Shown here one piece after another: positions 9,749-28,060 of a stretch of DNA of 32,000 nucleotides. The number at the start of each line of letters is the position of its first letter. Positions within the stretch are counted from its first letter, which is position 1. A model generated the notes under the pieces. That model had not been told where the DNA came from. It was given only the letters and a program-made list of their open reading frames with translations, and did no database searches. Source of the DNA: Candidatus Saccharimonadota bacterium (GTDB lineage: Archaea > Nanobdellota > Nanobdellia > Pacearchaeales > GW2011-AR1); NCBI GenBank assembly GCA_041659445.1, contig JBAZYG010000002.1, positions 60,001 to 92,000 on the forward strand, in the 5' to 3' direction. The position numbers and the translations under genes were made by a program.

Positions 9749-9835
9749 AACTTAATTTATACACAAAAACTTCGTACAATATACCTTATGCGAACTCAAT
9801 AAAAATAAGCAATTCGTGCACAAAGCTAACCTAAA

Positions 9836-9979
9836 TTAAAAGGAATCTAATAGGGCTCTAGATTGGTCTTTTAAAATATTCACAGTAGCTGGAAGAGCAA
9901 CCAAGATACCTAAAATTAAGTAAATCCAATTCTTGGATAGTGCATTATTTTTAAATTTTTTAGAAAAATGTTTAGTCAT
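9836..9979 (-). CDS. possible small single-pass membrane protein (47 aa)
   Basis: Hand-translated: MTKHFSKKFKNNALSKNWIYLILGILVALPATVNILKDQSRALLDSF. It is below the ORF-track size cutoff, and the only support is the hydrophobic helix. Confidence 0.3.
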   Translation of the reverse strand: MTKHFSKKFKNNALSKNWIYLILGILVALPATVNILKDQSRALLDSF

Positions 9980-10024
9980 CTTTATCTAAAAACTAGGAAA
10001 AAAGGGTATAAAAACCTATCTTTT

Positions 10025-11892: not shown

Positions 11893-12330
11893 ATGGAAGA
11901 ATTAGAAAAACTTAAACAAGAGAATTTTGAATTAAAAAAAGAAATAGAAAAATTAAAAAATTTATTAAATAATCGAGGGAAAACTCAAAAATCAGGAATG
12001 ATAAAAAAAGCAAGTTCAGGAAAAGTTATGTCAAAACCTGCTTTTGGATATAAAATAGAATTCGGAAAATTAATAAAAGATAGTGAAAACGCAAAAAAAG
12101 TTCAAGAAATATTCTCTGAATTTTTAATTAATGATATAAGTTTGAATAAATTATCTAAGAAATACAATTTTTCAGTTAATGGTTTGAAAAAAATTTTAAC
12201 TAATTTTACATACATTGGAAAAATAAAATTTGATAATTCAGTTCATGAAGGAACCCATGAGCCAATAATTTCATCAACAGATTTTAATCATGTTCAAGAT
12301 AAATTAGAAAAAATGCTTAAGAAGAATTGA
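11893..12330 (+). CDS. stand-alone 'Recombinase' domain protein (large-serine-recombinase DNA-binding domain without the catalytic resolvase domain)
   Basis: 145 aa with an N-terminal coiled coil. It then shows FGYK...AKKVQEIFSEF...SLNKLSKK...LKKILTNFTYIGK...HEPIISSTDFNHVQ, the conserved pattern of the Recombinase domain. The start is 1 nt after the xerA stop. Confidence 0.65.
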   Translation: MEELEKLKQENFELKKEIEKLKNLLNNRGKTQKSGMIKKASSGKVMSKPAFGYKIEFGKLIKDSENAKKVQEIFSEFLINDISLNKLSKKYNFSVNGLKKILTNFTYIGKIKFDNSVHEGTHEPIISSTDFNHVQDKLEKMLKKN

Positions 12331-12334
12331 TTAT

Positions 12335-12652
12335 TTACTCTCTTATTCTAAAGCCAAATCCACTTGTTTGATCTGTGCAGGGAACTCTTAACAAACTGAG
12401 GGATCTAGAATGATACTTCTTTTCAACTTTTTTAAAATCCTTTTCTGATATTAATTTATAGTTCTGTAGTTCTTTCAAGGAAATTCTTTTATGCTTTTTT
12501 TCTAAAATATTTTCCACAGAGATAATGTCTTCTGTAGTTTTTGCTTCCAGAGATATTTTTTGAAATTGTATAATTTCCCCTTCATAATAATTGTGTTGAA
12601 AATATTTTCCTTTAAGAGATTGTTCAAGTAATTCATACATTGTTTCTTCCAT
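12335..12652 (-). CDS. hypothetical protein (variable cassette ORF 1)
   Basis: 105 aa. Its 5' leader and 3' flank are duplicated around the neighbouring, unrelated ORF at 12847-13152. Confidence 0.5.
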   Translation of the reverse strand: MEETMYELLEQSLKGKYFQHNYYEGEIIQFQKISLEAKTTEDIISVENILEKKHKRISLKELQNYKLISEKDFKKVEKKYHSRSLSLLRVPCTDQTSGFGFRIRE

Positions 12653-12846: not shown

Positions 12847-13152
12847 TTAAAAGTCTTGAATAAAATTTAAGTCTGGAAATCTTTTAGATAAATTCTCATG
12901 GAAAATTTTTGATTCTTCTTGTGTTGGTAATCTCTCATCTTCGTCGGGTATTAAATCCTGACAAATTTTTATTTCCAAATTTTTATTCTCTTTTGAGAGT
13001 TTATTTAATTCAAAATCTAGGTGAAAATATTTTTCGTTTAAATTATTTGAAAGAAATCCACCACCGCCTGTTGTAGGAGGTTTAAAAAAATAATAAAAGT
13101 ATCTTTTTTCTGAAATTGACGCAAATAGCCTTAATTTATAATCTTCTTCCAT
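12847..13152 (-). CDS. hypothetical protein (variable cassette ORF 2)
   Basis: 101 aa with the same MEE start context and leader as 12335-12652, but an unrelated body. Confidence 0.5.
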   Translation of the reverse strand: MEEDYKLRLFASISEKRYFYYFFKPPTTGGGGFLSNNLNEKYFHLDFELNKLSKENKNLEIKICQDLIPDEDERLPTQEESKIFHENLSKRFPDLNFIQDF

Positions 13153-14799: not shown

Positions 14800-14883
14800 T
14801 GTGGATGTTAGGATTCGAACCTAAGTAGGCACTAAGCCAACAGATTTTGAGTCTGTCCCGTTTGACCACTCCGGCACATCCAC
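14800..14883 (-). tRNA. tRNA-Leu (anticodon CAA), class II with long variable arm
   Basis: Minus strand GTGGATG-TG-CCGGAGTGGTCAAACGGG-ACAGA-CTCAAAA-TCTGT-TGGCTTAGTGCCTAC-TTAGG-TTCGAAT-CCTAA-CATCCAC-A. All stems pair and the 7-nt loop carries CAA. Confidence 0.92.
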
Positions 14884-15012
14884 TTCTTTAATTAGAGAAT
14901 TTTTATGTTATATAAAAATTGTGGTTTACACTTTCTTAAGCATTTTTATAATAAATCTTTAAAATTCGTTTGAAATACAAAGCTTTATAAATAAATTTAA
15001 TTTATTTAATTC

Positions 15013-15510
15013 ATGGAAAATAAAGGGTTTTTCAATAAAGAAATAGGGAATTTCACTTTTAAATCTCCAGAAATACCCAAAATAAGTGAAATACCTGAAA
15101 TTGCCCAAAATTCCATAAAAGACCCCCTTTTTTACGATTTAGGTAAAGAAAGAATAGAATCTCTTAAAAAAGCAATTTCAGAAATAAAAATTTTAATTAA
15201 AGAAAGAGAAAAGTTAAGTAAAGACACTTTTAACGAAGGTGAAAAACTTAAAACAGAAATAAATAATTTTATTCTTGAAAACGAAAATGCAAACATTGCA
15301 TTAAATTCTGTTTCTACAAATGAATTACTTAGAGAAAAAAACGAATTAAGGTCTAAAAAAATTACAATTTCTGAATCTCAATTAAAAGAAAAAATTGATT
15401 GCTGGAAAGACGTTGCAGTGCTTAAAAAAGAATTAAGAGAACTTGAAATAGAACTTTCAGAAAAAGAAAATAGGATAATTGCATTAAATAAAATTCTCGA
15501 ATCTAATTAA
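15013..15510 (+). CDS. coiled-coil protein, partner of the downstream ATPase
   Basis: 165 aa. The C-terminal two thirds are heptad-rich (ESLKKAISEIKILIKEREKL...LRELEIELSEKENRIIALNKILE). It ends 5 nt before the ATPase gene. Confidence 0.65.
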   Translation: MENKGFFNKEIGNFTFKSPEIPKISEIPEIAQNSIKDPLFYDLGKERIESLKKAISEIKILIKEREKLSKDTFNEGEKLKTEINNFILENENANIALNSVSTNELLREKNELRSKKITISESQLKEKIDCWKDVAVLKKELRELEIELSEKENRIIALNKILESN

Positions 15511-15515
15511 TAAAA

Positions 15516-17534
15516 ATGAAAAGACTTCTTAGTATAGAAGAGTTAAGCACAAAATTAAAACCTTTATTCGGAGAAAAAATTGATCAATTATATTTTAAAT
15601 ATTTAACTTCAAATTCTAACGAAGAAAAAATAGAAATTTTGCAATTATTGACGGCATTATATCAAAAAAATCTTTCAAATTTACTCGATACAAAAATTTT
15701 GTTAGAACCGCCTCCAAAAGAATTAGTTACAGGAGAATACACTCTTGGAAATGTAGTTTATAATGAAAAAGAACTATATCCCTTTAATTTAAGAGAGCAA
15801 GATTGGTCAAGACACATTTGTGTTACAGGTATGTCTGGTAGTGGAAAAACAAATTTAGCATTGAATATTCTTTCAGATTTTATAAAAAAATCAAAGCCAT
15901 TCTTAGTTTTTGATTGGAAAAAAAGTTTTCGACCGTTGGTAAATAAAGATCCTTCATTAATGATTTTTACAGTCGGAAACGAATCTGTAAATAATTTTTT
16001 CAAATTAAACATAAACCGACCACCAAAAGATGTTTCACCAAAAGAATGGATAAATGTTTTGTGTGATCTATTAACAGAAAGTTTTGCAGTTTCATTCGGA
16101 GTTCACAAAGTTTTATTAGAAACATTAGATGAAATTTTTGAAAAATGGGGAGTTTATTCTGGTTTTAATCATTATCCAAATTGGGAGCATGTTAAAAAAA
16201 TGCTTGAAATAAAAGCAAGAGAGGCAAAAAAAAGAGAATCTGCATGGTATGAAAGTGCTTTAAGAATTGCATCTGTTTTAACTTTTGGAAGTTTTGGAAA
16301 AGTTATAAACTACGACGGAAAAAAAAGTCTTTCAGTTGAAGATTTGTTTGATAAAAGAGTTATTCTTGAATTAAATTCTTTGGGAAATATTGAGAAAAAA
16401 TTCTTTTGTGAATATCTTTTAACTTATATTTACAAATTAAAAAAAGCAAATCAATTCAAAGATGAATTAAACTTTAATTATGCAATTTTAGTTGATGAAG
16501 CACACAATATTTTCTTGAAAAATAAAACAAATTTCTTATCTGAATCTGTTACAGACATGGTTTACAGAGAAATGAGGGAATATGGAATAAGTTTAATTTG
16601 TTTAGACCAGCACATTTCTAAAATAAGTGATACTGTTAAGGGAAATTCTGCTTGTCATATAGCATTTCAACAACAACTTCCTGAGGACATTTATGATATT
16701 AGTTCTTTAATGCAAATGTTTGACAGAAAAGAAATTTTTTCAAAAATTCCTGTTGGATATTCTATTGTGAAACTTGCTGAAAGATATAATTCCTCTTTTT
16801 TAATTAAAGTTCCGTTATTTGATTTTTCTGGTGCAGAAGTAGGTGATGAAAAAATAAAATCAAGAATGGATTTTAAATTACTTGAAAATGAAATTGAAGA
16901 ATCAGATAAAGAATTTAAAAAAGAAATAACTTTTCCTTCAATAAAAAATGCAATAAAACCCGGACTAACCTTGAAGAAATCAAAAAAAAGAATTATCTTA
17001 GATAAGGAAGATTTAGAAGTTCCTTTAGAAGTTCAAGATTTTAAGAGAAAAATTGAAAATATTAAAGAGGAATATGCTGGTTTAACTCCTGTTCAAAAAG
17101 AATTATTTTTATTTATTCAATCAAAATTAGATTCAGGACGTGAATTAAAAGATATTGAAAATTTGCTTGAGCAAGGGCTTTCAGAAAAACTTTATAGTTT
17201 TTCAGATGTATTAACTGCAATTAATTATGCAATGGAGCAAAGATTAAAACTTCCTTCAAAATCTTTAACTTTCCAAAATAAAAATAATTTAGAACTTGTT
17301 TCAAATCAATTAAAACATTCTTCTGAAAATTTACCTGACGATGAGAAAAAGTTTGTTGAATTTTTAAGAAAAAATCCAAACAATGAATTAAATACAACTT
17401 CAATATATTCTTCAATGGGTTTTTCAACAAGAAAAGGAAATGTTATTAAAAAAAGGTTAATTGAAAAAAATCTTATAAAAGTTCAAGAACAAAGGACAAC
17501 AAAAGGCTGGCAAAAATTCATAAGATTAGCTTAG
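15516..17534 (+). CDS. HerA/FtsK-superfamily P-loop ATPase (DUF87-like) fused to a C-terminal winged-helix domain
   Basis: 672 aa with Walker A ICVTGMSGSGKTNLALNIL, Walker B YAILVDEAHNIF, then LICLDQH. The C-terminus FVEFLRKNPNNELNTTSIYSSMGFSTRKGNVIKKRLIEKNLIKVQE is wHTH-like. Confidence 0.8.
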   Translation: MKRLLSIEELSTKLKPLFGEKIDQLYFKYLTSNSNEEKIEILQLLTALYQKNLSNLLDTKILLEPPPKELVTGEYTLGNVVYNEKELYPFNLREQDWSRHICVTGMSGSGKTNLALNILSDFIKKSKPFLVFDWKKSFRPLVNKDPSLMIFTVGNESVNNFFKLNINRPPKDVSPKEWINVLCDLLTESFAVSFGVHKVLLETLDEIFEKWGVYSGFNHYPNWEHVKKMLEIKAREAKKRESAWYESALRIASVLTFGSFGKVINYDGKKSLSVEDLFDKRVILELNSLGNIEKKFFCEYLLTYIYKLKKANQFKDELNFNYAILVDEAHNIFLKNKTNFLSESVTDMVYREMREYGISLICLDQHISKISDTVKGNSACHIAFQQQLPEDIYDISSLMQMFDRKEIFSKIPVGYSIVKLAERYNSSFLIKVPLFDFSGAEVGDEKIKSRMDFKLLENEIEESDKEFKKEITFPSIKNAIKPGLTLKKSKKRIILDKEDLEVPLEVQDFKRKIENIKEEYAGLTPVQKELFLFIQSKLDSGRELKDIENLLEQGLSEKLYSFSDVLTAINYAMEQRLKLPSKSLTFQNKNNLELVSNQLKHSSENLPDDEKKFVEFLRKNPNNELNTTSIYSSMGFSTRKGNVIKKRLIEKNLIKVQEQRTTKGWQKFIRLA

Positions 17535-17788
17535 CTTATTTTTGTTTATAGATTATGTTACTTTTATGCAATAGTTACAAATAGAAACATTTATAAATTG
17601 ATTATTCCCTATAAAATAGAAAAAATCATATTCAAAAAACTAAACAAAAAAAACATATTTCAAAAATTACAAAAGAAACAAAAAACCGAGAATAAAACAC
17701 AGAATAAATAAGATAAATAAAATTAAATTTTATCTTGCATTTATTCAAAAATTTTATTCAAAGTTAATAAATTTCTTAAGTAAAAAAA

Positions 17789-17995
17789 TGAAATACCTTT
17801 TTCAAAATCGTTTTAGGTTTTGAAAAACAAGTGAAAAACCGCAAAAGGCTTTTCATGAGAATTATTCTTCATAGAAATATCAACTAGAACTTAAGTGAAA
17901 TACCTCAATTTCTAAGATATTTCATCAAATAAATTTCAAAAAAAATTCAAAAAATAATATGAAATACCCTAATTCAATTAAAAAAAGGTATTTCA
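17789..17995. repeat. iteron-like TGAAAWACC repeats in a 500-bp noncoding region
   Basis: TGAAATACC at 17789-17797, 17896-17904 and 17960-17968. Inverted GGTATTTCA at 17987-17995. Variant GTGAAAAACC at 17831-17840. Confidence 0.8.
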
Positions 17996-18036
17996 CACAA
18001 AATAATTTTTAATATTAACAATTTAAAACTTTAATC

Positions 18037-18234
18037 ATGGAAACAGCAACTTTTTTTCTTTTAATCGGAGCGATAGTTTTCATTTTTTTAGGAGCAATTT
18101 TACTTGTCGCTTCTTCAAAAAAAGAAACCTACCATTTTCCCTGGCTGTCTGTAGCATGCCTAATCGTGGCTTTTGCATTTTGTTTAGCCGCCCTCATCGT
18201 GCAAAACTCGGCCGGCGTTCATCCAGCGAACTAA
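18037..18234 (+). CDS. small two-TM membrane protein
   Basis: 65 aa with two hydrophobic helices (FFLLIGAIVFIFLGAILLVA; SVACLIVAFAFCLAALIV). Confidence 0.6.
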   Translation: METATFFLLIGAIVFIFLGAILLVASSKKETYHFPWLSVACLIVAFAFCLAALIVQNSAGVHPAN

Positions 18235-18265
18235 CTTGCAGGAATTTTAACATCTTTTTAAAACA

Positions 18266-18421
18266 ATGGAACAAATAACTTTAATCATACTCGGAGCAGG
18301 ACTTTCCTGTTTAGGAGTATTAAATTTATTTGATTACAAACATAGAGTAAACAGATCTTCCATTCTTGGAATGGGATGGGGTTTAGCTATGTTTATTTTA
18401 GGGATTTGTATCCTTAAATAA
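18266..18421 (+). CDS. small two-TM membrane protein (51 aa)
   Basis: Hand-translated MEQITLIILGAGLSCLGVLNLFDYKHRVNRSSILGMGWGLAMFILGICILK. It has the same TTTAAAACA-ATGGAA start context as other island genes and is below the track cutoff. Confidence 0.45.
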   Translation: MEQITLIILGAGLSCLGVLNLFDYKHRVNRSSILGMGWGLAMFILGICILK

Positions 18422-18673
18422 TCAAATAGAAATCTGCTAATTTTGGATTAGCCGAGTTGATGCATATCTTGGGAACAGAAGCATCAAATTCTTTTTTATC
18501 TTTTCTTGCCTGCACTTCGTCGATGGATAAGAAGTTCGATTCTTCTTGCAGGCACAATTCAGTGTTAAAAAATTCAAAAACAATTTCGACAAAGCGGAAG
18601 GCGGTTTTGTCAAATTAATTAAAAACAAACCCTTAAAAAAAAGTGCCATAAGGAGGCGCTAGCCGAATGTATC

Positions 18674-19300
18674 ATGAAAAATTTAAATGGAAAAAGTTTT
18701 GATGAACCTGAGGAAGAAAGACTGGTAAATCCCAAAGTTTATCAGGCAAAACCCGAACGGGTTTTTACATATCCCGAAGGGACTTTTGGGAGGTTGTGTG
18801 AAGAACAACACTGCAATCCTGATATTCTAATCTCTTCAGAGACAAAAATATCTCTATTTTCAAAAGTAGGTAATCCGGGGTATCGAATGTATACCTACAA
18901 AATTGAAAACAATGAAACAGACGCGTTGAGCGTCTACGAACCATGGGCGAGAATTGAGCTCAAAAAAGATTTTTTCCTTGAAAGGAAAAATCATGCCAAG
19001 GAATGTGGCCGGATTGCAAAAGAGCTTGGACTTCCGTTTGAATTAATTCTGGCTGTCGGCATTGAGCCAGAAAAACGCCAGGCTCTTCTCCAGTTGAAAG
19101 AAAAAGCCGAATGGTTCAGGGAACTGATCCACGAGCTGAAGGAATGCGGAATTAATAAGAGGAAAATGTCTATTCTCGATCTCATCGGGAGAGAGACATA
19201 CGACTCTTTGGATGTCGAAGGTATGGGGCAAAAAAATTCCTCGACAATTGCCCAATTTCTCACAAGGGGAATAACCATCGAGGGTTATTCTAAAAAATAA
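18674..19300 (+). CDS. hypothetical soluble protein
   Basis: 208 aa with island-type composition and no signal peptide; no motif recognised. Confidence 0.65.
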   Translation: MKNLNGKSFDEPEEERLVNPKVYQAKPERVFTYPEGTFGRLCEEQHCNPDILISSETKISLFSKVGNPGYRMYTYKIENNETDALSVYEPWARIELKKDFFLERKNHAKECGRIAKELGLPFELILAVGIEPEKRQALLQLKEKAEWFRELIHELKECGINKRKMSILDLIGRETYDSLDVEGMGQKNSSTIAQFLTRGITIEGYSKK

Positions 19301-19387
19301 TAATTAACTCGGCAGAAATAAGGCACTGCAATGAGACAAAATATTAACTATTAATTGGATAGGGACATGCTATCCATTTTATTTTAA

Positions 19388-19459
19388 TTCATTATAGCTC
19401 AGTTGGTAGAGCATCTGATTTTATTCAGAAGGTCATAGGTTCGAATCCTATTAATGGAA
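19388..19459 (+). tRNA. tRNA-like gene with bacterial-type D-arm and an aberrant 6-nt anticodon loop (Lys-UUU-like, or pseudo-tRNA)
   Basis: TTCATTA-TA-GCTC-AGTTGGTA-GAGC-A-TCTGA-TTTTAT-TCAGA-AGGTC-ATAGG-TTCGAAT-CCTAT-TAATGGA-A. All four stems pair, but the total is 72 nt because the anticodon loop is one nt short. Confidence 0.6.
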
Positions 19460-19460
19460 C

Positions 19461-19910
19461 AATGTTCTCTTTTGAACATTTTAGCTTCATCCCTTGAAGC
19501 TTGCTCATACATGAGCATTTCGTTTCTCAATTTCTTTGAGAGACAAACATTTTTCTTTTTTTAATCTGATTATCATGTTTTTTTAATCAGGTTTCATTCG
19601 CTGAAATTTCCTTCAGCAAACATTTTCCAAAAACTCTTTAGATTTCAGAGCCAAAACAAAATCAATTTGTTATTTTATTTATTTTCAGTTATTATTTATT
19701 TTTAATTATTTTTCAAATTAATTACTTTATTAGTATTTAGTTAAGTTCTTTTTATTTCAATTATTTTCTTATCATTATTTTATTTTTCTTTTCGTCATTT
19801 CGTTCTGAAGTGACAAACATTTTTCTTAGTTTTCTTTTTAGTTGCTCTTTTTCATTAATTTATTTTGAGCAACTTTCTTCGGCTAATTCCAGCCAAACAT
19901 TTTCCCTTTT
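19461..19910 (+). repeat. array of short hairpins, four to five followed by a conserved AAACATTTT(T)C tail
   Basis: Stems TCTCAA/TTGAGA (tail at 19545), GCTGAA/TTCAGC (tail at 19618), GTCATTTC/GAAGTGAC (tail at 19814) and GGCT/AGCC (tail at 19895), plus AATGTTC/GAACATT at 19461-19480. More hairpins at 19483-19501, 19502-19517, 19566-19590 and 19842-19873. Confidence 0.8.
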
Positions 19911-19966
19911 AATTTTTCTTCTGAATTTTTTTTAAACAAATATTAACAATTTAATTTCAAAACGTC

Positions 19967-20806
19967 ATGAAAAATTTAATTTCAAAAAATTGTTCATCGA
20001 TTCTGCCGTTCTTTCTGATTGCATTAATTGCTATCTTTGCATTTTGCTGTGCAAGACCAGTGAATGCTCAATCCACGTGGGATTGTGAAAGGTATTCAGA
20101 TCCCTTTTCATTCAACGTCAAACAAGTCAATAGTTCAATTTGGATTTTGAGTTATTCGATTAAGAATGATTCAATTATGACATTCAACCATGCCGGCGTG
20201 ACCTCTTTGGAGTTGACTTCAAATGATATAATTCTTGATTCCATTGAGGTTGTCTTTGTGTCAAAATTTCCTTTTTCAAGTACACAAATTCAAGCCAGTC
20301 TTAAAAAAGTTTATTTTGAAAATTCCCCACAATTAGTGAGGCAAGATGTTATTTTCAAAACTTTTCCGAAGTGGCCAGACAAGAAAATAGAAACGTTTTA
20401 CATTTACTGCAAAAAAGAAGGAAATAAAGTAACTTTCTATGATGAATTGGTATTTACTAAAACCAAATCAAATTGGCTTTGGCCGACAGCGTGCGTTATA
20501 GTTTTAATTGGGTTTTTTTTAATTGATGCAATTCAAAAGATTGGGGAAAGAAGAAATTATCTCAAAAATGAAAGCAGGGTAGAAAAGTTTTTTTCAGGAT
20601 TTTTTGCAAATACTTTTTGCAGTTTTGGAGAAGTAATTTTCATCCTTATATTAATTATATTATTTCTTTTTAAGATAATGTCCCTAGTAGAAGATTATTC
20701 TTTAGATAAAATTGGAATAATCTTTTATCTGTCTCTGATTTTCTTGTTCTTTCTCGGAAAATTTATTCTTTACAAAATCTTTTTCCGAGGAATTAAAAAA
20801 TACTAA
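19967..20806 (+). CDS. secreted-domain protein with a C-terminal multi-TM region
   Basis: 279 aa with a signal peptide ending VNA|Q, a soluble domain of about 140 aa, then 3-4 hydrophobic helices. Confidence 0.7.
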   Translation: MKNLISKNCSSILPFFLIALIAIFAFCCARPVNAQSTWDCERYSDPFSFNVKQVNSSIWILSYSIKNDSIMTFNHAGVTSLELTSNDIILDSIEVVFVSKFPFSSTQIQASLKKVYFENSPQLVRQDVIFKTFPKWPDKKIETFYIYCKKEGNKVTFYDELVFTKTKSNWLWPTACVIVLIGFFLIDAIQKIGERRNYLKNESRVEKFFSGFFANTFCSFGEVIFILILIILFLFKIMSLVEDYSLDKIGIIFYLSLIFLFFLGKFILYKIFFRGIKKY

Positions 20807-20813
20807 CTTCTTT

Positions 20814-20890
20814 TAAGGGCAAGTTAAAGAAAAGGATTTTCTACGTTTTGCCTTTTTAGATTAGAGATAGCAATCTAATACTTGCCCTTA
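20814..20890 (+). ncRNA. 77-nt Y-shaped structured element (11-bp closing stem plus two internal hairpins), function unknown; may act as a terminator
   Basis: TAAGGGCAAGT (20814-20824) pairs with ACTTGCCCTTA (20880-20890). Inner hairpins are AAAAGG..CCTTTT and TAGATT..AATCTA. It is followed by TTTTC. Confidence 0.4.
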
Positions 20891-20942
20891 TTTTCAAAAC
20901 TTTTTTTCAAAATTAATTCACCAATTCAAAATTTTAAACGCC

Positions 20943-21632
20943 ATGAAAAATTTAATTTCTTTACTTAAAAAAGTAGGAGTCTTTAAAGCAATCGGAATTT
21001 CTGCTTTAATTGGCTTTATTTTGGTAATAATTTTTCTTGTGCTATTACCAAAAAATTCAAATTCACAAGAAATTTCTTCTCCTGAAAAATGGAAGATTAA
21101 TTCCATAAATTTTGTCGCTGGCGAAACACCCTTGACAAAAGGAATTACTTTAAGCCCAGTTTTTTCAAAAGGTAAATCAACAATAATGATAGATCTAAAC
21201 CAGGAATTAGGAGAACTTATGTTTTTTTATTCTCCTAAAAAATGGTGTTCCATCGGGCCATCAGTAGGGTTCTTCAAGAATACATCTTGGGTAGGACCAA
21301 TTGCTTCATTAAACATTTTTAATGGACATGTTACAACTCTTAACTGGGTGGGATGGAGTTTTGGAAACCCTGAAGCAATCGGAGGAGGAACTACAAATTC
21401 CAACGTTGATTTCTTGTTTTCCTTTCACCAGGTTTCTGTCAATTACTTCGGTGTAGAAGGTTATTATATTCTGCAACACTACCAAAAAAATTTTCCCGGG
21501 CACATTGTAGGGGTTAAGTATACTTTTGCCCTCGGAGATAATTTTTCCCTTTTCGGAGGTTATGCTTATATGTTCCGAGCAGATAAATCCCTTTGGTCCG
21601 CAGGTTTCATTTTGTTATTTCCAGAAAAATAA
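20943..21632 (+). CDS. secreted beta-rich protein, putative beta-barrel (paralog of 21636-22316)
   Basis: 229 aa with a signal/anchor ending SNS|Q and alternating hydrophobic strands. It shares the YSPKKWxSIGPSVG block with the next gene (YSPKEWITFGLSAG). Confidence 0.65.
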   Translation: MKNLISLLKKVGVFKAIGISALIGFILVIIFLVLLPKNSNSQEISSPEKWKINSINFVAGETPLTKGITLSPVFSKGKSTIMIDLNQELGELMFFYSPKKWCSIGPSVGFFKNTSWVGPIASLNIFNGHVTTLNWVGWSFGNPEAIGGGTTNSNVDFLFSFHQVSVNYFGVEGYYILQHYQKNFPGHIVGVKYTFALGDNFSLFGGYAYMFRADKSLWSAGFILLFPEK

Positions 21633-21635
21633 ACC

Positions 21636-22316
21636 ATGAAAGCAAATTTCAAATTAAAAGTTCCCGGTCCATTCACAATTGTAGAATGGATTTTCATCAT
21701 GATGATTGTATTGGCAATCGGAACTTGTTCCAGAACCAATGCTCAAACTTCTCAAAATTTCTTCAAGATAAATGTTCATGTTCAAGTTGTTTCAGACGAG
21801 CAATCTGAAACAAGTAAAAAGTTCAGAACATTTTACCAAGAGGAATTTTATTTTAATCATAAATTTTCTTCGAATTTAGCTTTCACAAGTTTTGCAACAG
21901 TTAGAAATGATCGGGGTGAAATTTATTCTGGATTAGAGTACTCACCAAAAGAATGGATAACTTTTGGTTTGAGTGCTGGTCTAGATGTTGCAAAAGAAGC
22001 TGGTTCATCGTCAGCAACTTTGAGAACTGCAACATCTGTTTCCCTCAAGCCAGTAGAACAATTTGAATTCAAAGGAATTTTTGAATATAGCTCTGAGGAT
22101 TACTGGTTTTTGATTGAGCCAAAATACAATGGAAAGAAATTTTCATTGAGTTTGATTGCCCGTCGATATCATGGTGTCGGGTTTTCATTTTATTGGCCGA
22201 TTGCCAAGGGTAATCTGACTTTATGGTACTATGCGGGATATCTTCAAGGAAAATTCCTCGGAGGTGATGATAACCCACGAGCCTCTTCAGCCTTAGGGTT
22301 GAAAGTTAATTTTTAA
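21636..22316 (+). CDS. outer-membrane-type beta-barrel-like protein
   Basis: 226 aa with a signal peptide ending TNA|Q and amphipathic beta-strand periodicity. The C-terminus is ALGLKVNF, with terminal Phe and alternating hydrophobics (bacterial OMP beta-signal). Confidence 0.65.
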   Translation: MKANFKLKVPGPFTIVEWIFIMMIVLAIGTCSRTNAQTSQNFFKINVHVQVVSDEQSETSKKFRTFYQEEFYFNHKFSSNLAFTSFATVRNDRGEIYSGLEYSPKEWITFGLSAGLDVAKEAGSSSATLRTATSVSLKPVEQFEFKGIFEYSSEDYWFLIEPKYNGKKFSLSLIARRYHGVGFSFYWPIAKGNLTLWYYAGYLQGKFLGGDDNPRASSALGLKVNF

Positions 22317-22347
22317 TTTACTTAATACTAATTTAATTTTTAAAACA

Positions 22348-22842
22348 ATGGAAAATTTTCTTGAAAACAAATCAGTTGCAAAAATCTGCTTGATTCTTGC
22401 AATTATCATCATGGTGATTCTGTCTCTCTCGCCAATAGATGCAAAGTCTCAAGTGATTGTTAATGACGCTGATTCAAGTGTTGTCCTTGACATTCAGAGC
22501 ACCTCTGGCGGTATTCTCATTTCCCGGATGACAGAAGCTCAACGTGACAGCATCTCAGAACCAGCGAATGGTTTGCTGATTTATCAAACAACCGTTCCAA
22601 TGGGTTTTTATTTTTGGGACGGAGTCCAGTGGAACAGGCTCGTAAGTGAAAATGCAGAAGGTATCATACAATATGGTGAGGCAGAATTTTCTGGAGAGCC
22701 TTCCCAGGAATTATTTGAAAGTGTTTTTGGTATCAGACAATTTCATTTTCATTTCACTCTGCTAAGCACAAATCAGAATAAAGTCTTCACTGGCGCCTAC
22801 ATTACTGGGCATGGGTTTTTCTATGAAAAACTCAAGCAATAA
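22348..22842 (+). CDS. secreted protein with an STSGGILISRMT..QRD.I..P..GLLIYQT....W motif
   Basis: 164 aa with a signal peptide ending AKS|Q. From memory, the motif resembles one common in Bacteroidota secreted hypothetical proteins; this was not verified. Confidence 0.6.
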   Translation: MENFLENKSVAKICLILAIIIMVILSLSPIDAKSQVIVNDADSSVVLDIQSTSGGILISRMTEAQRDSISEPANGLLIYQTTVPMGFYFWDGVQWNRLVSENAEGIIQYGEAEFSGEPSQELFESVFGIRQFHFHFTLLSTNQNKVFTGAYITGHGFFYEKLKQ

Positions 22843-22946
22843 CAACTACAACCCTTAATTGGGATTCTGCATTTCTAAATTTCTTTGGCATTATTAAAGA
22901 AATTAAATTCTCAAAATGTTTATTAATCATCAAATTTCAAAATGTC

Positions 22947-23093
22947 ATGGCAAAAAAGAATTTTGCAACCAGAATCATCTTAGAAAATGATGGAGTTTCT
23001 AAAGATGAAGAAATTCCTCTCAAAGCCAAAATGAAAAATATACATAAAACCTACCATCCACTAAAAGGGATGAAAGGAAAAAAAGCAGAATAA
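22947..23093 (+). CDS. small basic protein (48 aa)
   Basis: Hand-translated MAKKNFATRIILENDGVSKDEEIPLKAKMKNIHKTYHPLKGMKGKKAE. It is preceded by the island leader AAATTTCAAAATGTC-ATG and followed by a 10-bp-stem hairpin. Confidence 0.45.
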   Translation: MAKKNFATRIILENDGVSKDEEIPLKAKMKNIHKTYHPLKGMKGKKAE

Positions 23094-23236
23094 AACCCAT
23101 CAGCAACGCAAAAGGCAGGAACTTTTAATCTAAATTAACTAATGGTTTTTGATGAATCTCTATCTTCCCCTGCCTTTTTAATTTGAAAACAATTTATGTC
23201 AAAATATTAATTCAAAACTTTTAATTTCAAAACGTC

Positions 23237-23746
23237 ATGAAAACAAAAGAGAACAATTTTCTGTATTGGGGAGTTGTGATTGTTTTTTTAGTAACGATCA
23301 TATCCCTGGTCTTAATGTTTGTTTCTATAATTTCAAAAGCAAATAAAAAAGATTTAGAAACAAAATCTTCCAACACTTCAAACGTTGTTTTTGTGGAGAA
23401 TTCTGATTCTTCAATAATAATAAACGCAGAAGTTATCATCTCAGAATTCAACGGAATTTCTGATTCCGTTGATTACCAAACCAGCGAGGATTTTATAGAT
23501 ATTTCCTTAGCAATAGAACAATATTATCCTTGCTCAGATACTACTCTCTGTGACAGCCTGAGACAAAATTTTATTGACGAGCTTAGAAAAATTTCAGATG
23601 TTAATGTCCTTGAAATTTTTCTCGAGACAATCAATAGGGTTTTCATCAACACAGACTTTTCAAAAACCGATGACATTAAATCATTAATTACTCAGAGAGT
23701 TAATGATTTATACGCCCTTGAATCATATCAAGAACTCAAAAAATAA
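23237..23746 (+). CDS. N-terminally anchored extracytoplasmic protein
   Basis: 169 aa with one TM (LYWGVVIVFLVTIISLVLMFVSII), and the leader TTAATTTCAAAACGTC-ATG, nearly identical to that of 19967. Confidence 0.65.
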   Translation: MKTKENNFLYWGVVIVFLVTIISLVLMFVSIISKANKKDLETKSSNTSNVVFVENSDSSIIINAEVIISEFNGISDSVDYQTSEDFIDISLAIEQYYPCSDTTLCDSLRQNFIDELRKISDVNVLEIFLETINRVFINTDFSKTDDIKSLITQRVNDLYALESYQELKK

Positions 23747-23785
23747 TTTTCAAAACTTTTTTCAAAACAATTTAAATTAAATGTC

Positions 23786-24178
23786 ATGGAAAAATTTGGT
23801 ATTTATTTAGTATGGATGCTGATACTTCTTGTATTTGCGTTCTTAAATCGCACCATCCTGTATTATGGAGCAATCTGTCCAGCCGTCAGTGGAAGACCTG
23901 TTGCTGACTTAAGACCTTGGAGAATATTCTCTTGGGTTTTCGGAGGAATTTCCTTTATTGTTTACAATTTTCTTTTGTTAGTTCCAATCGACAGCGAGTT
24001 TAAAGATTTCTTCAAACCAGTGTGCCTGATTTTTGCTGGAACCTGTGTTCTGGCATTAATTCTTTTTGCCCTGCTAAGTTCTGATGCAATTTTGATGACT
24101 ATCCGTCGGAGATTTAATCTCGTTGGAATTGCGTTAGGAATTGTCTTGTGCCTAACGCTTTCATTCTTCCTGTTATAA
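23786..24178 (+). CDS. four-TM integral membrane protein
   Basis: 130 aa with four hydrophobic segments. Confidence 0.65.
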   Translation: MEKFGIYLVWMLILLVFAFLNRTILYYGAICPAVSGRPVADLRPWRIFSWVFGGISFIVYNFLLLVPIDSEFKDFFKPVCLIFAGTCVLALILFALLSSDAILMTIRRRFNLVGIALGIVLCLTLSFFLL

Positions 24179-24184
24179 CATTCA

Positions 24185-24224
24185 TTGCATTATGTATCTC
24201 TTGAAGATTATAATGCATTTCTTT
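24185..24224 (+). terminator. hairpin plus T-run (intrinsic-terminator-like)
   Basis: TGCATTAT (24185-24192) pairs with ATAATGCA (24209-24216), followed by TTTCTTTG. Confidence 0.55.
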
Positions 24225-24300
24225 GATTTCAATTACTCAATTTAATTTGAGACAAAATATTTTTCACAAATTTCTATTTATTAATTCAAAAATTTTTACC

Positions 24301-25152
24301 ATGAAAAAAATCGTTTTTTTATTCGGAATTTTCTTCCTTTTTTTAGGAAGTATCTTTTCCCAAGACATCATCTATAAAAGAGATGGGTCCAGAATTCAAT
24401 CAGTGGTTTTGAAAATCACTGAGACGTCGATAGAATATCAATATTTCAATCAACCCGACGGGCCTGTGCGAGTACTCTCTCTAAAAGATGTGTATATGGT
24501 CAGGTACAACGACGGAACAGAAGAACAATTCACATCTGAAGTTCCTGAAGTTCAACCTGAACCTGAGGCTGTTTCCACCACATCTATTATGCCGACGACA
24601 ACAATCAGTCAACCTGTTTCAACAGAACCAATTCAGCCACCAGTTACAACCAAACAAAAATCATCTGGAAAATTCTCCCTCAATGCTGGAGGGTTTCTCC
24701 ATATGTATTACAACGAGGAAATGTCCTCGACATTTGGCACCATGCCTTTGTTCGGCTTGGGTCTTGGCGTGGACATGGATAATATATTTTTCACGCTGAG
24801 ATATAATACTGGCTCTGTGAAGTATGATGAGGATAACTGGACATTAAAGCATTCCCAGTTGGACTTGCTGTTCGATTTAAAGTGGTATAAATCACAGGGA
24901 AGCAAAGCCCAAGTATATTCTGGAATTGGGCTTTCTCTTAATACATTGAAAGATGAAGGTCCAGACAACGAGAAAGAAAAAGGAACAGGTGCAGGGGTTT
25001 TGCTCGAGCTTGGCTTTGATATCTTACTTGCAAATAATTTATATTTGTTTGTCACGGCAACATCTGTGATAGGGAATGTAAATATTTACGAAGAGAAAGT
25101 TAACATCAGCGGAGAACGACTCGGAGTCGGGCTCAAGGTTAACTTTGATTAA
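24301..25152 (+). CDS. outer-membrane-type beta-barrel protein with an N-terminal small domain and a Pro/Thr-rich linker
   Basis: Start taken at MKKIVFLFGIFFLFLGSIFS|QD. It has an N-domain IIYKRDGSRIQSVVLKITETSIEYQYFNQPDGPVRVLSLKDVYMVRYNDGTEEQF, a PEPEAVSTTSIMPTTT linker, about 8 amphipathic strands, and ends GVGLKVNFD. Confidence 0.7.
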   Translation: MKKIVFLFGIFFLFLGSIFSQDIIYKRDGSRIQSVVLKITETSIEYQYFNQPDGPVRVLSLKDVYMVRYNDGTEEQFTSEVPEVQPEPEAVSTTSIMPTTTISQPVSTEPIQPPVTTKQKSSGKFSLNAGGFLHMYYNEEMSSTFGTMPLFGLGLGVDMDNIFFTLRYNTGSVKYDEDNWTLKHSQLDLLFDLKWYKSQGSKAQVYSGIGLSLNTLKDEGPDNEKEKGTGAGVLLELGFDILLANNLYLFVTATSVIGNVNIYEEKVNISGERLGVGLKVNFD

Positions 25153-25269
25153 CTTTTAAATTTTCAAAAAATCCTTAATCGAAATTCTAAAATTAGTTTG
25201 AAGAAAAGAGCATAACTGTGAGTGTATGCTTTTAAATTTTCAAAATGTCTAATAACAAATTTTTTAACA

Positions 25270-26055
25270 ATGGAAACAAAAACAAAAAAAATCACATGGT
25301 GGGACGTAGCATTTGTCGCCATCGTGGTGACTTTGGTGGGGTTTGTACTTTGGGTTTGTCTCACACCGCCGCCCAACAAAATAACCGACGAGAGAGCCCA
25401 ACAAACCCAAGATTCACTCTCAAACCAGTATCGATTTGAGTGTAACTTAATTTCTTTCAACTCAGAACCAGTTCCGGCCTTTTTTGAATGGTTGGAATTG
25501 CAAGGAGAGGGATACACTCCAGTAGGTAATAATCCGGTTCTGGTACCCATACGTTCAGGACAGGAAATGATTTATTCGTATGAAGGTAAAATGTATAAAG
25601 GCATTTTACCAAACACAACCTACTTCATGTGGGAGCCAGCTTCAGGTATGGAATTCAAATGTCTCTCCAGAAATGGAGCAATTATATCCATAACTCCTTA
25701 TGAAACAGGTGAGCCAGTCCAGTATTTTATCCGTCGATACAATGAATTCTGGAGTTTCGAGGAATTAAAAATTCGTAATTATCGTTATTCATTGAACATC
25801 ACCGCAATTTATCCTTGGGGAGAAATTCTCATCGATAACTACGAAGATCTGTTGATGAATTCTTCTGTAAAAAGGTTTCGCTCCTGGGGACCTGCTTATG
25901 AAGTTCAGGTCGGGCAAGCTGAGTTAAATGGGTGGGAAGATTTTTTCCTCGTCAGTCAGGATGGGAAAGCATGGCTTACCCGCGAACAAGAGCAACGACG
26001 ACGTGAAAGTCAGTTCATACATAACGTCGGACCTGGAGGTTTTATACTTCCATAA
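25270..26055 (+). CDS. N-terminally anchored extracytoplasmic protein
   Basis: Start taken at METKTKKITWWDVAFVAIVVTLVGFVLWVCL (single TM); the remaining roughly 230 aa are soluble with no recognised motif. Confidence 0.65.
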   Translation: METKTKKITWWDVAFVAIVVTLVGFVLWVCLTPPPNKITDERAQQTQDSLSNQYRFECNLISFNSEPVPAFFEWLELQGEGYTPVGNNPVLVPIRSGQEMIYSYEGKMYKGILPNTTYFMWEPASGMEFKCLSRNGAIISITPYETGEPVQYFIRRYNEFWSFEELKIRNYRYSLNITAIYPWGEILIDNYEDLLMNSSVKRFRSWGPAYEVQVGQAELNGWEDFFLVSQDGKAWLTREQEQRRRESQFIHNVGPGGFILP

Positions 26056-26246
26056 TTCCCCCAATTATTAAACCCAAAATGTGAAGTTGACAAGAATGTG
26101 ACTTGATGTGCACATTTTTTCTTTTGAACAAATTATTAATTTAAAAAAGAAAGGAGGAAAAAATAATTAAGAGTGTTGGTATGAACATAACCTTATTTTT
26201 AAGGTGTATGTAAAATTATAATTATTCACCTAAATTTTAAATCATC

Positions 26247-26813
26247 ATGAAAAAGATTCTTTTTATTTTCTTTGGACTACTCTTTGCGAGTAGTCTTTTT
26301 GCAATCGAACCGACAGTACCTGCTACCAGCACCGGCGAGAATTCCCCGACGATTTTCACTGCTGAGCAGAAAGCTGAAGCCATCAACGCTTTCGTGACCA
26401 GTGGAAGCATGGAAATGGCTATTCCCGGATTGCCTGATGCACCGCCGCCGGTGAGGTATGAGAACATCTTAGGTTTTGAAGTAACCGCATGTAACTCCAT
26501 GCACATTGCGTATGGGGTGACCGGGGGTAATGAAGAACCTGCTTTTTGGGTTTACCCATGGGGAGGAACCGTTAGAGTAGAAAAAACAGTTTGGCCCCAA
26601 GCAGGACAGCAAGTTTGGGTAAAAGTATTATCCTGTTCAAGCCCACAGCAAGGATATTGCAATCTACATTTAGACCGAAGGGTTTGGTATCCAGATCAAG
26701 GTCCTATGGGCGAGCCCTTATTGTGCTTGTATGGATGGATATGGTGTTATACCGCGGGAAGTATCCTACCTCAAACAGGATACACCGAGGCCGGTTATTG
26801 TGTGACTGAATAG
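26247..26813 (+). CDS. secreted Cys/Trp-rich protein
   Basis: 188 aa with signal peptide MKKILFIFFGLLFASSLFA|IE. It is the G+C-richest gene in the window and its C-terminal half contains 7 Cys. Confidence 0.65.
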   Translation: MKKILFIFFGLLFASSLFAIEPTVPATSTGENSPTIFTAEQKAEAINAFVTSGSMEMAIPGLPDAPPPVRYENILGFEVTACNSMHIAYGVTGGNEEPAFWVYPWGGTVRVEKTVWPQAGQQVWVKVLSCSSPQQGYCNLHLDRRVWYPDQGPMGEPLLCLYGWIWCYTAGSILPQTGYTEAGYCVTE

Positions 26814-26828
26814 CCTATCCTGCTCTTC

Positions 26829-26870
26829 AAGGACTTTATTTCTCTCGAGGATTAAAGTCCTTTTCTTTTG
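26829..26870 (+). terminator. hairpin plus T-run (intrinsic-terminator-like)
   Basis: AAGGACTTTA (26829-26838) pairs with TAAAGTCCTT (26853-26862), followed by TTCTTTTG. Confidence 0.6.
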
Positions 26871-26900
26871 ATTTTAATTTCCTTTAAGGAATCAAAATAT

Positions 26901-27001
26901 AAGGCGTTGGTCAGAAGCAATTCCTGAAGTAATTGCACAAGTTGCGAAAAATCAAATTTTTGTGTGAGAATTCATCCAACCAAGGGAAAATCCAACGCCT
27001 T
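26901..27001 (+). ncRNA. about 100-nt element closed by a 10-bp stem (possible structured RNA), function unknown
   Basis: AAGGCGTTGG (26901-26910) pairs with CCAACGCCTT (26992-27001). It has an internal GCAATT..AATTGC hairpin and lies at the right edge of the G+C-rich island. Confidence 0.3.
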
Positions 27002-27044
27002 CTTTTAATATAAGTCTTTTAACAACTAAAAAAGGGGGTTTATT

Positions 27045-27239
27045 ATGTTTTATCATGTGTGGGTATCTGTGTTTTTAATTGTATTCGGAGCATTAGTGTT
27101 ATCTAGACAGATATCTTTTCCAATTGAAAAACGTTCAACTTCAAGATTATTTTGGGGTTTTGCTTATTTTGGAATAGGCATAAGTCTTTTAACAACTATT
27201 GTTTTATTGAAATACATTAAAGATATTCCTTGGTTTTAA
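27045..27239 (+). CDS. small two-TM membrane protein
   Basis: 64 aa with two hydrophobic helices. It contains the second copy of a 19-bp direct repeat (27180-27198); the first copy is at 27010-27028, just upstream. Confidence 0.5.
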   Translation: MFYHVWVSVFLIVFGALVLSRQISFPIEKRSTSRLFWGFAYFGIGISLLTTIVLLKYIKDIPWF

Positions 27240-27346
27240 ACTAATTAAAAAAATGCTTATTTAATTTTTCAGAATTTTATTTAAGCATTTTTTTTGCAAA
27301 ACAGAACTGCTAAAATATAGCAGTAGTATTTAATTAAAAAAAAGAA

Positions 27347-28060
27347 CTATAATTTTTTTGAAACACTTTCTAAATCTTTTTTCAAGAATTCAAGAGCTTT
27401 TTTGAAAATTTCTTTAGGTTCTATTTGTCCAAATGATTCAACTTTAATTATTAATTCATCTCCTTCTTTTATTTCTGCTTTCTTTTTATTTTTTATAGCC
27501 AAGCCTTCACAAAAATCTGAGATTGGTTTTTCAGAATTATCTTCTATAATTATTTTATCACCTTTTTCTTTAATAGCATTTTCTGGAAAATTTTTTTTAA
27601 TTATGTCAGAAAATTCTTTATCAATAATAATCTCTCCAGAGTTTCTGTAAATTATAATTCCAGGTGAGAACTTTGCATGTTCAAATCCTCTTCCCATTCT
27701 AACATAAGCAGTAATATCAACTTCTTTTCCAGGATTTAATATTGTAATTGGAATTTTATCATAAACTACTTCAATATTTCCTTTGAAATCCCCAGAATAA
27801 ACAATCCCTTCTTTTTTTACTTTTAATTTTAATTTTTCTTCTGAATTTTCTTTAAATCCTTTTGAAAATTTTAAAGGTATTAATCCAATTCTATGTGCAA
27901 CTGTTTCGTCGTACAATGCAGTATCATTTTTTGCAATTTCAACTTCATCAATTGCTAAAATTGGAATCAAATTAACACTTCTTCTTATTGCATTTGCCAA
28001 AGTTTCATTTATTTTTGCCTTAAAAACAAATTTGTCTTTTGTGTTTTTTATTGTTTCCAT
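27347..28060 (-). CDS. rpoD: DNA-directed RNA polymerase subunit D (Rpo3)
   Basis: 237 aa; ANAIRRSVNLIPILAIDEVEI..NDTALYDETVAHRIGLIPL, in the conserved position after S11. Confidence 0.88.
   Translation of the reverse strand: METIKNTKDKFVFKAKINETLANAIRRSVNLIPILAIDEVEIAKNDTALYDETVAHRIGLIPLKFSKGFKENSEEKLKLKVKKEGIVYSGDFKGNIEVVYDKIPITILNPGKEVDITAYVRMGRGFEHAKFSPGIIIYRNSGEIIIDKEFSDIIKKNFPENAIKEKGDKIIIEDNSEKPISDFCEGLAIKNKKKAEIKEGDELIIKVESFGQIEPKEIFKKALEFLKKDLESVSKKL

Follow-up and report, generated by a model that had tools for sequence, protein, structure and literature searches.

A conserved, fast-changing island of secreted proteins and outer-membrane-type barrels in Pacearchaeota-like archaea, with a glutamine signature like that of Bacteroidetes

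How does an archaeal chromosome come to carry a run of genes for secreted proteins that look like those of a bacterial outer membrane? We addressed this question for a gene island in a 32,000-nucleotide stretch of contig JBAZYG010000002.1 (assembly GCA_041659445.1, positions 60,001 to 92,000; hereafter the window), in which a sequence-only reading had recognised a Bacteroidota-like envelope gene set at 19967-26813. Outer-membrane-type beta-barrels typify diderm bacteria and organelles, and to our knowledge archaeal envelopes have yielded no characterised transmembrane beta-barrel. In this study, we demonstrate the architecture of the island, its positional conservation, its barrel folds, its Gln signature and its compositional layering. 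We regard the case as about evenly balanced that it is a lineage-conserved, fast-turnover surface-protein island stocked from diderms of the Fibrobacterota-Chlorobiota-Bacteroidota (FCB) group (Bacteroidota/Ignavibacteriota), probably for interaction with a bacterial partner.

The results showed that the whole insertion occupies 14884-27346 of the window, between tRNA-Leu/L18e and rpoD, with a gap of 12.46 kb between rpoD and tRNA-Leu. Its left anchor is the native tRNA-Leu(CAA) (14800-14883, minus strand; ARAGORN and Rfam), and its right anchor is the gene for archaeal RNA polymerase subunit D (RpoD; 27347-28060, minus strand; Pfam). The rpoD-side flank carries RpoD, S11, S4, S13, DUF655, Rpb4 and L21e on the minus strand, the other flank carries tRNA-Leu, L18e, L13 and S9, and the NCBI label on the window proteins is 'Candidatus Pacearchaeota archaeon', a metagenome-assembled genome (MAG). 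These ribosomal and RNA polymerase flanks, together with the label, bear out the assignment of the island to an archaeal chromosome. In island-free relatives (RpoD 56-59% identical), tRNA-Leu lies 60-230 bp downstream of rpoD and is followed by L18e-L13-S9; in one of them the rpoD/tRNA-Leu gap measures 1.36 kb. This relative (L084) has an insertion of its own at 1457-2820, which codes for a 382-aa secreted protein, and the gap therefore seems to be an insertion hotspot.

Independently assembled contigs run through the junctions. A 68-kb ENA contig crosses both steps in GC content, and two Logan contigs from other sequencing runs cover the left junction or the interior of the island; identity to the window is 99.98-99.99%, with a single shared single-nucleotide polymorphism (SNP). 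The two Logan contigs (L002 and L003, from two different runs) both end at exactly 26954, and L002 begins within tRNA-Leu (14852), which suggests that the contig ends at the island edges are assembly-graph branch points, i.e. strain variants or repeats. At the right junction (26954-27346; composition, repeat search), GC returns to host level and a small host-like open reading frame (ORF), g27045 (27045-27239), is found. An exact 19-nt direct repeat, ATAAGTCTTTTAACAACTA, at 27010-27028 and 27180-27198 brackets the start of g27045 and may be a recombination scar. An inverted repeat at 26905-27005 folded no better than shuffled sequence (z 0.11).

The GC content of the window is ~25%, rising to 30-40% across roughly 18-27 kb. 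At third codon positions (GC3), host genes lie at 0.10-0.21, g15013 and the HerA-type ATPase gene at 0.14, and every gene from 18037 to 26813 at 0.23-0.42. The insert is a host-like ATPase module joined to compositionally foreign cargo (18037 to ~27000). The interval first singled out, 19967-26813, does hold the secreted-protein genes, in nine same-strand ORFs that are all intact, but the foreign block is wider and the whole insertion wider still. The cargo falls into a lower GC3 class of 0.23-0.29 (g18266, g19967, g20943, g21636, g23237) and a higher class of 0.36-0.42 (g18037, g18674, g22348, g23786, g24301, g25270, g26247), and these two classes suggest several acquisition events of different age.

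The host-like module begins with g15013 (15013-15510, plus strand), a small protein whose gene lies upstream of the ATPase in every case, with homologs in the same position in two related islands (L092 and L095). The ATPase itself (15516-17534, plus strand; Pfam), a 672-aa P-loop protein of the HerA/FtsK superfamily, is the conserved anchor gene of the island and is missing from the island-free relatives. It matched DUF87/HerA (3.2e-9) and Zot (3.6e-6) in Pfam, mad8/HerA in PADLOC and, weakly, a terminase-like P-loop family in PHROGs, and it is 25% identical to two 7-9-kb 'Bacteriophage sp.' records. Neither the ATPase nor g22348 had a match when searched by sequence against the PDB. Between module and cargo lies an AT-rich spacer of 19% GC (17535-18036; repeat search, composition). 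The motif (G)TGAAATACC(T) is repeated several times within it, in either orientation, with a further copy inside g15013 (15083-15096); judged by sequence, these copies look like iterons or operators.

An AT-rich gene-start motif, approximately 'AAACAAATTATTAAYT..AAATTT' followed by ATG, stands before most genes of the arrays in this and other DPANN (Diapherotrites, Parvarchaeota, Aenigmarchaeota, Nanoarchaeota as well as Nanohaloarchaeota) genomes. Its core precedes 40-54% of island genes (four loci), compared with 25% of host genes and 6-7% of random positions, and it is most regular in L092. Because other DPANN islands have this motif too, the cargo sits in an expression context of DPANN type and is not raw bacterial DNA. 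We considered the motif as an archaeal TATA box or a Bacteroidota -7 element, but its distance from the ATG fits neither cleanly.

The same locus is occupied in at least three other DPANN species (L092, L095 and L110), each with different cargo. In L092 and L095, S9-L13-L18e is followed by a small ORF, a DUF87/HerA ATPase of 665-705 aa and a same-strand run of orphan genes that includes a g20943 relative. This run ends at RpoD-S11-S13 in L095 and in L110, of which the rpoD side alone is in view, so that no ATPase is seen there. In L103 the array directly follows S9, and L093 and L112 are further orphan arrays containing the g20943 family. The identities of g15013 (52-57%), the HerA ATPase (58-60% in L092 and L095) and g20943 (50-62%) compare with 60-87% for ribosomal proteins; this divergence about equals that of the flanking ribosomal proteins, as long residence of the three genes would predict. 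An all-against-all comparison showed that the g20943 family is the sole one present in all five compared islands, while the remaining cargo genes are unique to each genome.

Several observations were made in these related arrays. A contig binned as Woesearchaeota (L074) encodes a g24301-like outer membrane protein (OMP) (Pfam OMP_b-brl_2, E 1.6e-15) and has one family in common with L093. The L093 array (Nanoarchaeota MAG GCA_020430505.1) holds a 559-aa protein starting ..ISVA/QTWDGSTSTDWHTASNWN (the slash marks the cleavage site, here and below) and a TonB_C-domain protein (8554-10233 and 12097-12560), so that this DPANN island, too, has genes of bacterial envelope type. At 11238-11798 of L112 there is a second small OMP_b-brl-like protein, with ..TNA/Q at its signal peptide and GIKF at its end. 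Small proteins with a SiaC domain (PF09345) are found repeatedly in the arrays of L092 and L112, the former with a small STAS-domain protein as well (loci L092 11911-12273 and 17746-18135; L112 2477-2845, 3328-3699 and 10722-11144); these hint at a partner-switching or regulatory component.

We read the signal peptides of the 19967-26813 interval from the translations. As the sequence-only reading had stated, five of the six cleavable ones have Gln at +1: ..RPVNA/QS (19967), ..KNSNS/QE (20943), ..SRTNA/QT (21636), ..IDAKS/QV (22348) and ..GSIFS/QD (24301). The exception is ..SLFA/IE (26247). For a test free of cleavage calls, we searched this island and seven related ones for [AGS]-Q within 14 residues past the hydrophobic core. 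The results showed such a site in 28 of the 60 proteins of the eight islands, compared with 44 of 656 control windows from the same proteins (6.7%; binomial p 1.7e-17). The proposed match to the Bacteroidetes Q-rule pattern thus extends past the window, and the Gln signature belongs to the island family as a whole. Several further island proteins have lipobox-like ..C sites, with Cys directly after the cleavage point. Nearly all relatives of g20943 and g21636 show ..A/Q, ..S/Q or similar, and many end in Phe or Tyr. In the paper on the Q-rule, Gln follows the signal peptide at a mean of 71% in Bacteroidetes and at 77% in Ignavibacterium album, with low values in most Chlorobi and in other phyla, and archaea were not analysed (PMC5837995). 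Outside the islands, the GH3 enzyme of L095 is the one clear secreted protein, and it is cleaved before Glu; the called ORF for GH3 in the window genome has no signal peptide.

Three genes of the window had been proposed to encode bacterial-type OMPs, and models or profile homology support a barrel for each. The protein of g24301 (24301-25152, plus strand; Pfam, AlphaFold2, Foldseek) consists of a signal peptide (IFS/Q), a beta N-domain, a Pro/Thr linker and a predicted 8-stranded barrel of the OmpA/OmpX type. Its termini are MKKIVFLFGIFFLFLGSIFS/QD and ..GVGLKVNFD, with Phe penultimate, in agreement with the earlier translation. It is the sole island protein with a curated family match, to Pfam OMP_b-brl PF13505 over residues 123-282, at 30.0 bits against a cut-off of 28.7 (E 6.9e-7), which is a narrow margin. 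The AlphaFold2 model drew on five distant homologs aligned with the protein. In it, a signal helix is followed by a small beta domain at 22-76, which is well predicted, by a Pro/Thr linker at 81-121, which is disordered, and by eight long strands within 123-282, where the predicted local distance difference test (pLDDT) score is 63-85. The anticipated layout of N-domain, Pro-Thr linker and 8-strand barrel is reproduced by this model and by the PF13505 match. A Foldseek search of the PDB placed NspA on top (template modelling (TM) score 0.84, root mean square deviation (rmsd) 3.0 A), followed by OmpA, OprF, OmpW, OmpX and Ail, all 8-stranded outer membrane barrels. These findings indicate, at the level of a model, that g24301 is an 8-stranded outer-membrane-type transmembrane barrel. 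No Omp85 gene was seen in the 32-kb window and the fetched flanks, the parts of the genome that were covered.

The relatives of g24301 point to the FCB group. For its N-domain family, 142 relatives turned up among GTDB species genomes; Bacteroidota make up nearly all of the best 80, at up to 44-45% identity in the N-domain. The best full-length match is from Stygiobacter (Ignavibacteriota), and one match in the GTDB search comes from a Woesearchaeota MAG. The closest database relative adjoins biotin-synthesis genes on a bacterial contig. When all island proteins were compared by tblastn with 80 bacterial loci carrying g24301 relatives, no second island gene was co-located.

The protein of g21636 (21636-22316, plus strand; AlphaFold2, Foldseek) has a signal peptide (TNA/Q) and ends in ..ALGLKVNF, the C-terminus reported before. 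An indexed search found only the protein itself, while an exhaustive HMMER search gave 24 remote relatives of 180-243 aa, which have Q+1 signal peptides and about half of which end in Phe or Trp. The model built with these 24 relatives has 12 strands (pLDDT 85.3, predicted TM score 0.71). In the PDB, Foldseek matched it to KdgM (TM 0.69, rmsd 4.0) and NanC (TM 0.60), and further to PcoB, intimin/invasin beta-domains, OMPLA and OmpG; all matches were bacterial outer membrane barrels, as they were at the top of the list for g24301, so that the structure check suggested earlier came out in favour of barrels in both cases. According to the model, g21636 is a 12-stranded outer-membrane-type beta-barrel.

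Next to it, g20943 (20943-21632, plus strand; homologs, hhalign) encodes a protein with a signal peptide (SNS/Q) that belongs to the 12-strand barrel family and is the signature gene of the DPANN islands. Its family profile aligned with that of g21636 at an hhalign probability of 95.2% (E 2.7e-8, 178 columns). Because of this match, the two genes are taken as diverged tandem paralogs of the same fold, and the barrel fold of g20943 is accordingly one predicted by profile homology. Neither g21636 nor g20943 matched a Pfam or NCBIfam family at E<=0.1-1, and by sequence profile they fall outside KdgM/NanC. Eight homologs of g20943, at 39-62% identity, were found in DPANN contigs, one of them annotated from a Nanoarchaeota MAG. 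These DPANN copies often end in short basic tails after the last strand (KTKK, NRKK, INNK, PEK), and from such sequences the BAM-type (barrel assembly machinery) C-terminal signal may be relaxed in the archaeal lineage. Relatives of g21636 also occur on bacterial contigs with type IV pilus genes, YceG, UvrB and ribosomal protein S16; in L097 (GCA_964590105.1) the relative lies near type IV pilus genes, and in L100 near YceG/UvrD. The pilus genes and DUF5671 led us to weigh CPR/Patescibacteria as the group behind these contigs, but we treat them simply as bacterial. Because the neighbours in L097 and L100 show no obvious Q-rule, the g21636 family may be mobile among unrelated small-genome bacteria too.

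The rest of the cargo lies on the plus strand as well. The higher-GC block opens at 18037-18421 with two small membrane proteins of 65 and 51 aa (GC3 0.36 and 0.23; translations), followed by g18674 (18674-19300; GC3 0.39), an orphan soluble protein with no family match. A bacterial-type tRNA-Lys(UUU)-like gene lies at 19388-19460 (Rfam 64.6 bits; odd anticodon in ARAGORN); because its anticodon loop has 6 nt (TTTTAT) and its acceptor stem is AT-rich, it is probably defective. It is the sole island segment with blastn matches, at 83-87% to tRNAs of bacterial phages and Bacillus-group plasmids. The protein of g19967 (19967-20806) has a signal peptide (VNA/Q), an extracellular domain and C-terminal transmembrane helices, with no family match. 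That of g22348 (22348-22842) joins a signal peptide (AKS/Q) to an 'RMTEAQRD..GLL.Y' domain (precomputed Pfam PF26696 PTL_trimer), which also occurs in 250-940-aa proteins of six IMG/VR viral contigs. Two orphans without family match, g23237 (N-terminally anchored) and g23786 (a membrane protein with four transmembrane segments), occupy 23237-24178. An N-terminally anchored protein is encoded by g25270 (25270-26055); its weak kinship to a lipoprotein of the Woesearchaeota-binned contig L074 comes from a single pairwise comparison (E 2e-6). The last gene, g26247 (26247-26813), encodes a secreted Cys/Trp-rich orphan (LFA/IE) with GC3 0.42 and the top GC of the island (translation, composition). 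Apart from the OMP match and generic HerA matches, no informative result came from scanning every island protein against PHROGs, NCBIfam and PADLOC. A local duplication in the host part of the window is marked by two small paralogous genes in tandem (12335-12652 and 12847-13152, minus strand; 105 and 101 aa), whose upstream regions are almost identical over 60 nt.

Among the alternatives to a conserved surface-protein island, the one that survives best is that the 12.5-kb insert is an integrated mobile element (a provirus, a plasmid or a conjugative-like element) targeting the tRNA-Leu region. It overlaps with the reading that we prefer, and we regard it as possible but doubtful. The HerA/FtsK ATPase would then be a packaging or transfer motor, and the secreted proteins would be envelope or host-recognition genes. 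The insert adjoins a tRNA and is present in some relatives and absent from others, but a partial-copy and exact-repeat search found no att-type duplication of tRNA-Leu or of the junctions, just the 19-nt repeat. The weak terminase-like PHROG match of the ATPase, its Zot match and its 25% identity to the two phage records also fit a motor; it is, with its mad8 match, the sole candidate for a virion or conjugation hallmark, and Pfam, PHROGs, NCBIfam and PADLOC scans found no integrase, replication, capsid or portal gene in the insert. A XerC/XerA-like gene (11058-11891) lies outside the insert, past the ribosomal genes, and is syntenic in L095. The cargo is foreign in composition and has its own degenerate bacterial-type tRNA, yet GC3 is host-like for the ATPase and g15013, and these two have diverged at the pace of ribosomal proteins, as vertical inheritance predicts. 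The presence of the g22348 domain on IMG/VR viral contigs favours an element, whereas profiles of the ATPase, g24301 and g20943 found no relatives in IMG/VR, and blastn of the island DNA against phage and plasmid collections returned the tRNA-like gene only. The unidirectional small orphan genes, each after the conserved AT-rich gene-start motif, as well as the two Logan contigs that break at 26954 and the start of L002 inside tRNA-Leu, can also be counted for it.

The second alternative is that Gln+1 and the barrels are native to the archaeal clade, which would have its own Q-rule with a glutaminyl cyclase, or an outer envelope layer that houses the barrels. The g20943 family has so far been found in DPANN contigs alone, the signature is consistent over at least seven DPANN contigs, and the Q-rule paper left archaea out (PMC5837995). 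Nevertheless, the island genes differ in composition from host genes, the GH3 of L095, the one clear secreted protein from outside the islands, is cleaved before Glu, and both the g21636 and the g24301 families have relatives in bacterial contexts. Characterised transmembrane beta-barrels are not known from archaeal envelopes. We consider a native origin improbable.

The third alternative is that one contiguous piece of a Bacteroidota chromosome or phage was transferred recently as a block, and that its genes are passengers without a function in the archaeon. The raised GC3 over 18037-27000, the Q-rule signal peptides, the bacterial-type tRNA and the identity of up to 44-45% between the g24301 N-domain and Bacteroidota proteins are what such a transfer would leave. 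It is nevertheless largely refuted, and we give it very little weight: there is no synteny at any of the 80 bacterial loci, most genes are orphans, g20943 has its homologs in DPANN only, at the same archaeal locus in other species, the two GC3 classes point to several events, all nine ORFs are intact, and the gene-start motif is shared with other DPANN islands, with no Bacteroidota-type promoter evident. The description of the genes as Bacteroidota-like is therefore right as to their foreign GC3 and the overwhelmingly Bacteroidota/FCB family of the g24301 N-domain, and wrong as to import as one unit. In the same way, the suggestion of an island acquired across domains holds in spirit, but the island is layered and old. 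Finally, an assembly or binning chimera of bacterial DNA with an archaeal contig, which the GC steps at ~18.0 and ~27.0 kb and the Logan contig ends at 26954 might suggest, is effectively refuted by flanks that continue one archaeal operon in the correct orientation on both sides, by the 68-kb contig that spans both junctions and the agreeing contigs of two other runs, and by the same architecture in three other species.

We return to the reading of a conserved surface-protein island. The island occupies the tRNA-Leu/L18e-rpoD gap in one clade of Pacearchaeota-like DPANN archaea and combines a conserved host-like module (the small protein and the HerA/FtsK-type ATPase) with a fast-changing, same-strand array of secreted and membrane-protein genes. 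This array would have been stocked in layers of different age, with FCB diderm bacteria as the ultimate source of its genes, and such an origin would explain both the Gln after the signal peptides and the 8- and 12-stranded barrels. The barrel family of g20943 and g21636 would have been retained and duplicated in the archaeal lineage and, because it was kept and duplicated there, would be under selection in archaea. We infer that the archaeal Sec system exports the proteins, which then work on the cell surface where it touches a diderm bacterial partner; action on such a partner, one of the possibilities raised by the sequence-only reading, is the most appealing view of their function. The barrels might enter the outer membrane of the partner or imitate it, and other proteins could be adhesins; the ATPase presumably serves island-linked translocation of DNA or protein. 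In agreement with this reading, small-genome Pacearchaeota and Woesearchaeota have independently been proposed as possible episymbionts of bacteria (Castelle et al. 2021, PMC8204110). A bolder version, which we think rather unlikely, is that this Pacearchaeota clade lives attached to Bacteroidota/FCB diderms and that the island is its host-interaction locus, with a repertoire continually renewed with partner genes. The clade would then export barrels and adhesin-like proteins with host-style Gln N-termini, which would enter or engage the partner's outer membrane; if this is true, the Q-rule signature would name the long-sought host group of these archaea.

Several points weigh against this interpretation. 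Most cargo genes are orphans without a detectable bacterial relative. OMP barrels normally need the BAM machine and are assembled from the periplasm, which counts against their folding or delivery by an archaeon. The control set for Gln+1 outside the islands, drawn from the flanks only, held only one or two proteins. The contigs that host bacterial relatives of g21636 are not Bacteroidota-like (L097 with its type IV pilus genes, L100 with 54% GC), and the neighbours of these relatives show no obvious Q-rule, so that an FCB donor is no more than a candidate for this family.

Genomic islands and OMP genes on mobile DNA are already known. In our literature search for archaeal barrels, we found just a brief remark on what may be a distant relative in Altiarchaeales, and no published account of outer-membrane-type barrels fixed in DPANN chromosomes, of an FCB-type Gln signature on an archaeal secretome island, or of the conserved locus. 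The archaeal chromosomes described here have two fixed barrel families, and the conservation of one of them in several DPANN species shows that it is no stray contaminant. The Gln-bearing secretome island also gives a testable candidate for the partner clade of Pacearchaeota/Woesearchaeota, and the locus offers a handle on how ultra-small symbionts renew their surface repertoire.

Small OMP barrels likewise travel as accessory surface genes on phages and mobile elements of Gram-negative bacteria. The Lom protein of phage lambda is an example of a phage-carried OMP gene, and the BFVD viral structure library contains many phage OMP barrels, whose similarity to the island barrels is generic (TM 0.4-0.5). 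Unlike the island genes, phage-borne OMPs act in a diderm host that is able to assemble them, and in the IMG/VR scan no viral contig encodes the g24301 or g20943 family.

Among archaea, gene transfer between DPANN symbionts and their hosts is one counterpart. The small-genome Pace- and Woesearchaeota described by Castelle et al. (PMC8204110) carry bacterial-type extracellular proteins (murein-like lytic transglycosylases), which were read as hints of bacterial hosts, and many of their lineage-specific families are secreted or membrane-bound, as in the island. In contrast to the island, no outer-membrane barrels, Q-rule signature or island locus were reported there, and neither 'outer membrane' nor 'Bacteroidetes' appears in the text of that paper.

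With the 12-stranded barrels KdgM/NanC, PcoB, OMPLA and intimin/invasin, the g21636 model superposes at TM 0.5-0.69, with ~190 aa in the mature protein. It differs from KdgM/NanC in representing an undescribed small family, with 25 representatives in 1.84 billion proteins and a DPANN-resident branch. With the 'porin family'/OMP_b-brl proteins of Bacteroidota (PF13505, PF13568; OmpA/OmpX/NspA fold), g24301 shares the Q-rule signal peptide, the Pro/Thr linker, the eight predicted strands, an aromatic C-terminal motif and a small beta N-domain common to hundreds of Bacteroidota proteins. It differs from them in its archaeal chromosome, which has no known outer membrane or BAM, in its identity of only 26-45%, mostly in the N-domain, and in the terminal Asp after the Phe.

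The closest known counterpart of the signature itself is the Q-rule of Bacteroidetes, which puts Gln after the signal peptidase I site of the majority of secreted proteins (Bochtler et al. 2018, PMC5837995; PMC10653852). The island resembles it in five of the six signal peptides of the window and in about half of the N-terminally hydrophobic island proteins overall. The home of the Q-rule is in Bacteroidetes and a few FCB relatives with a periplasmic glutaminyl cyclase, whereas the genes described here are encoded not by a Bacteroidota or close FCB genome but in DPANN chromosomes, flanked by archaeal ribosomal and RNA polymerase genes.

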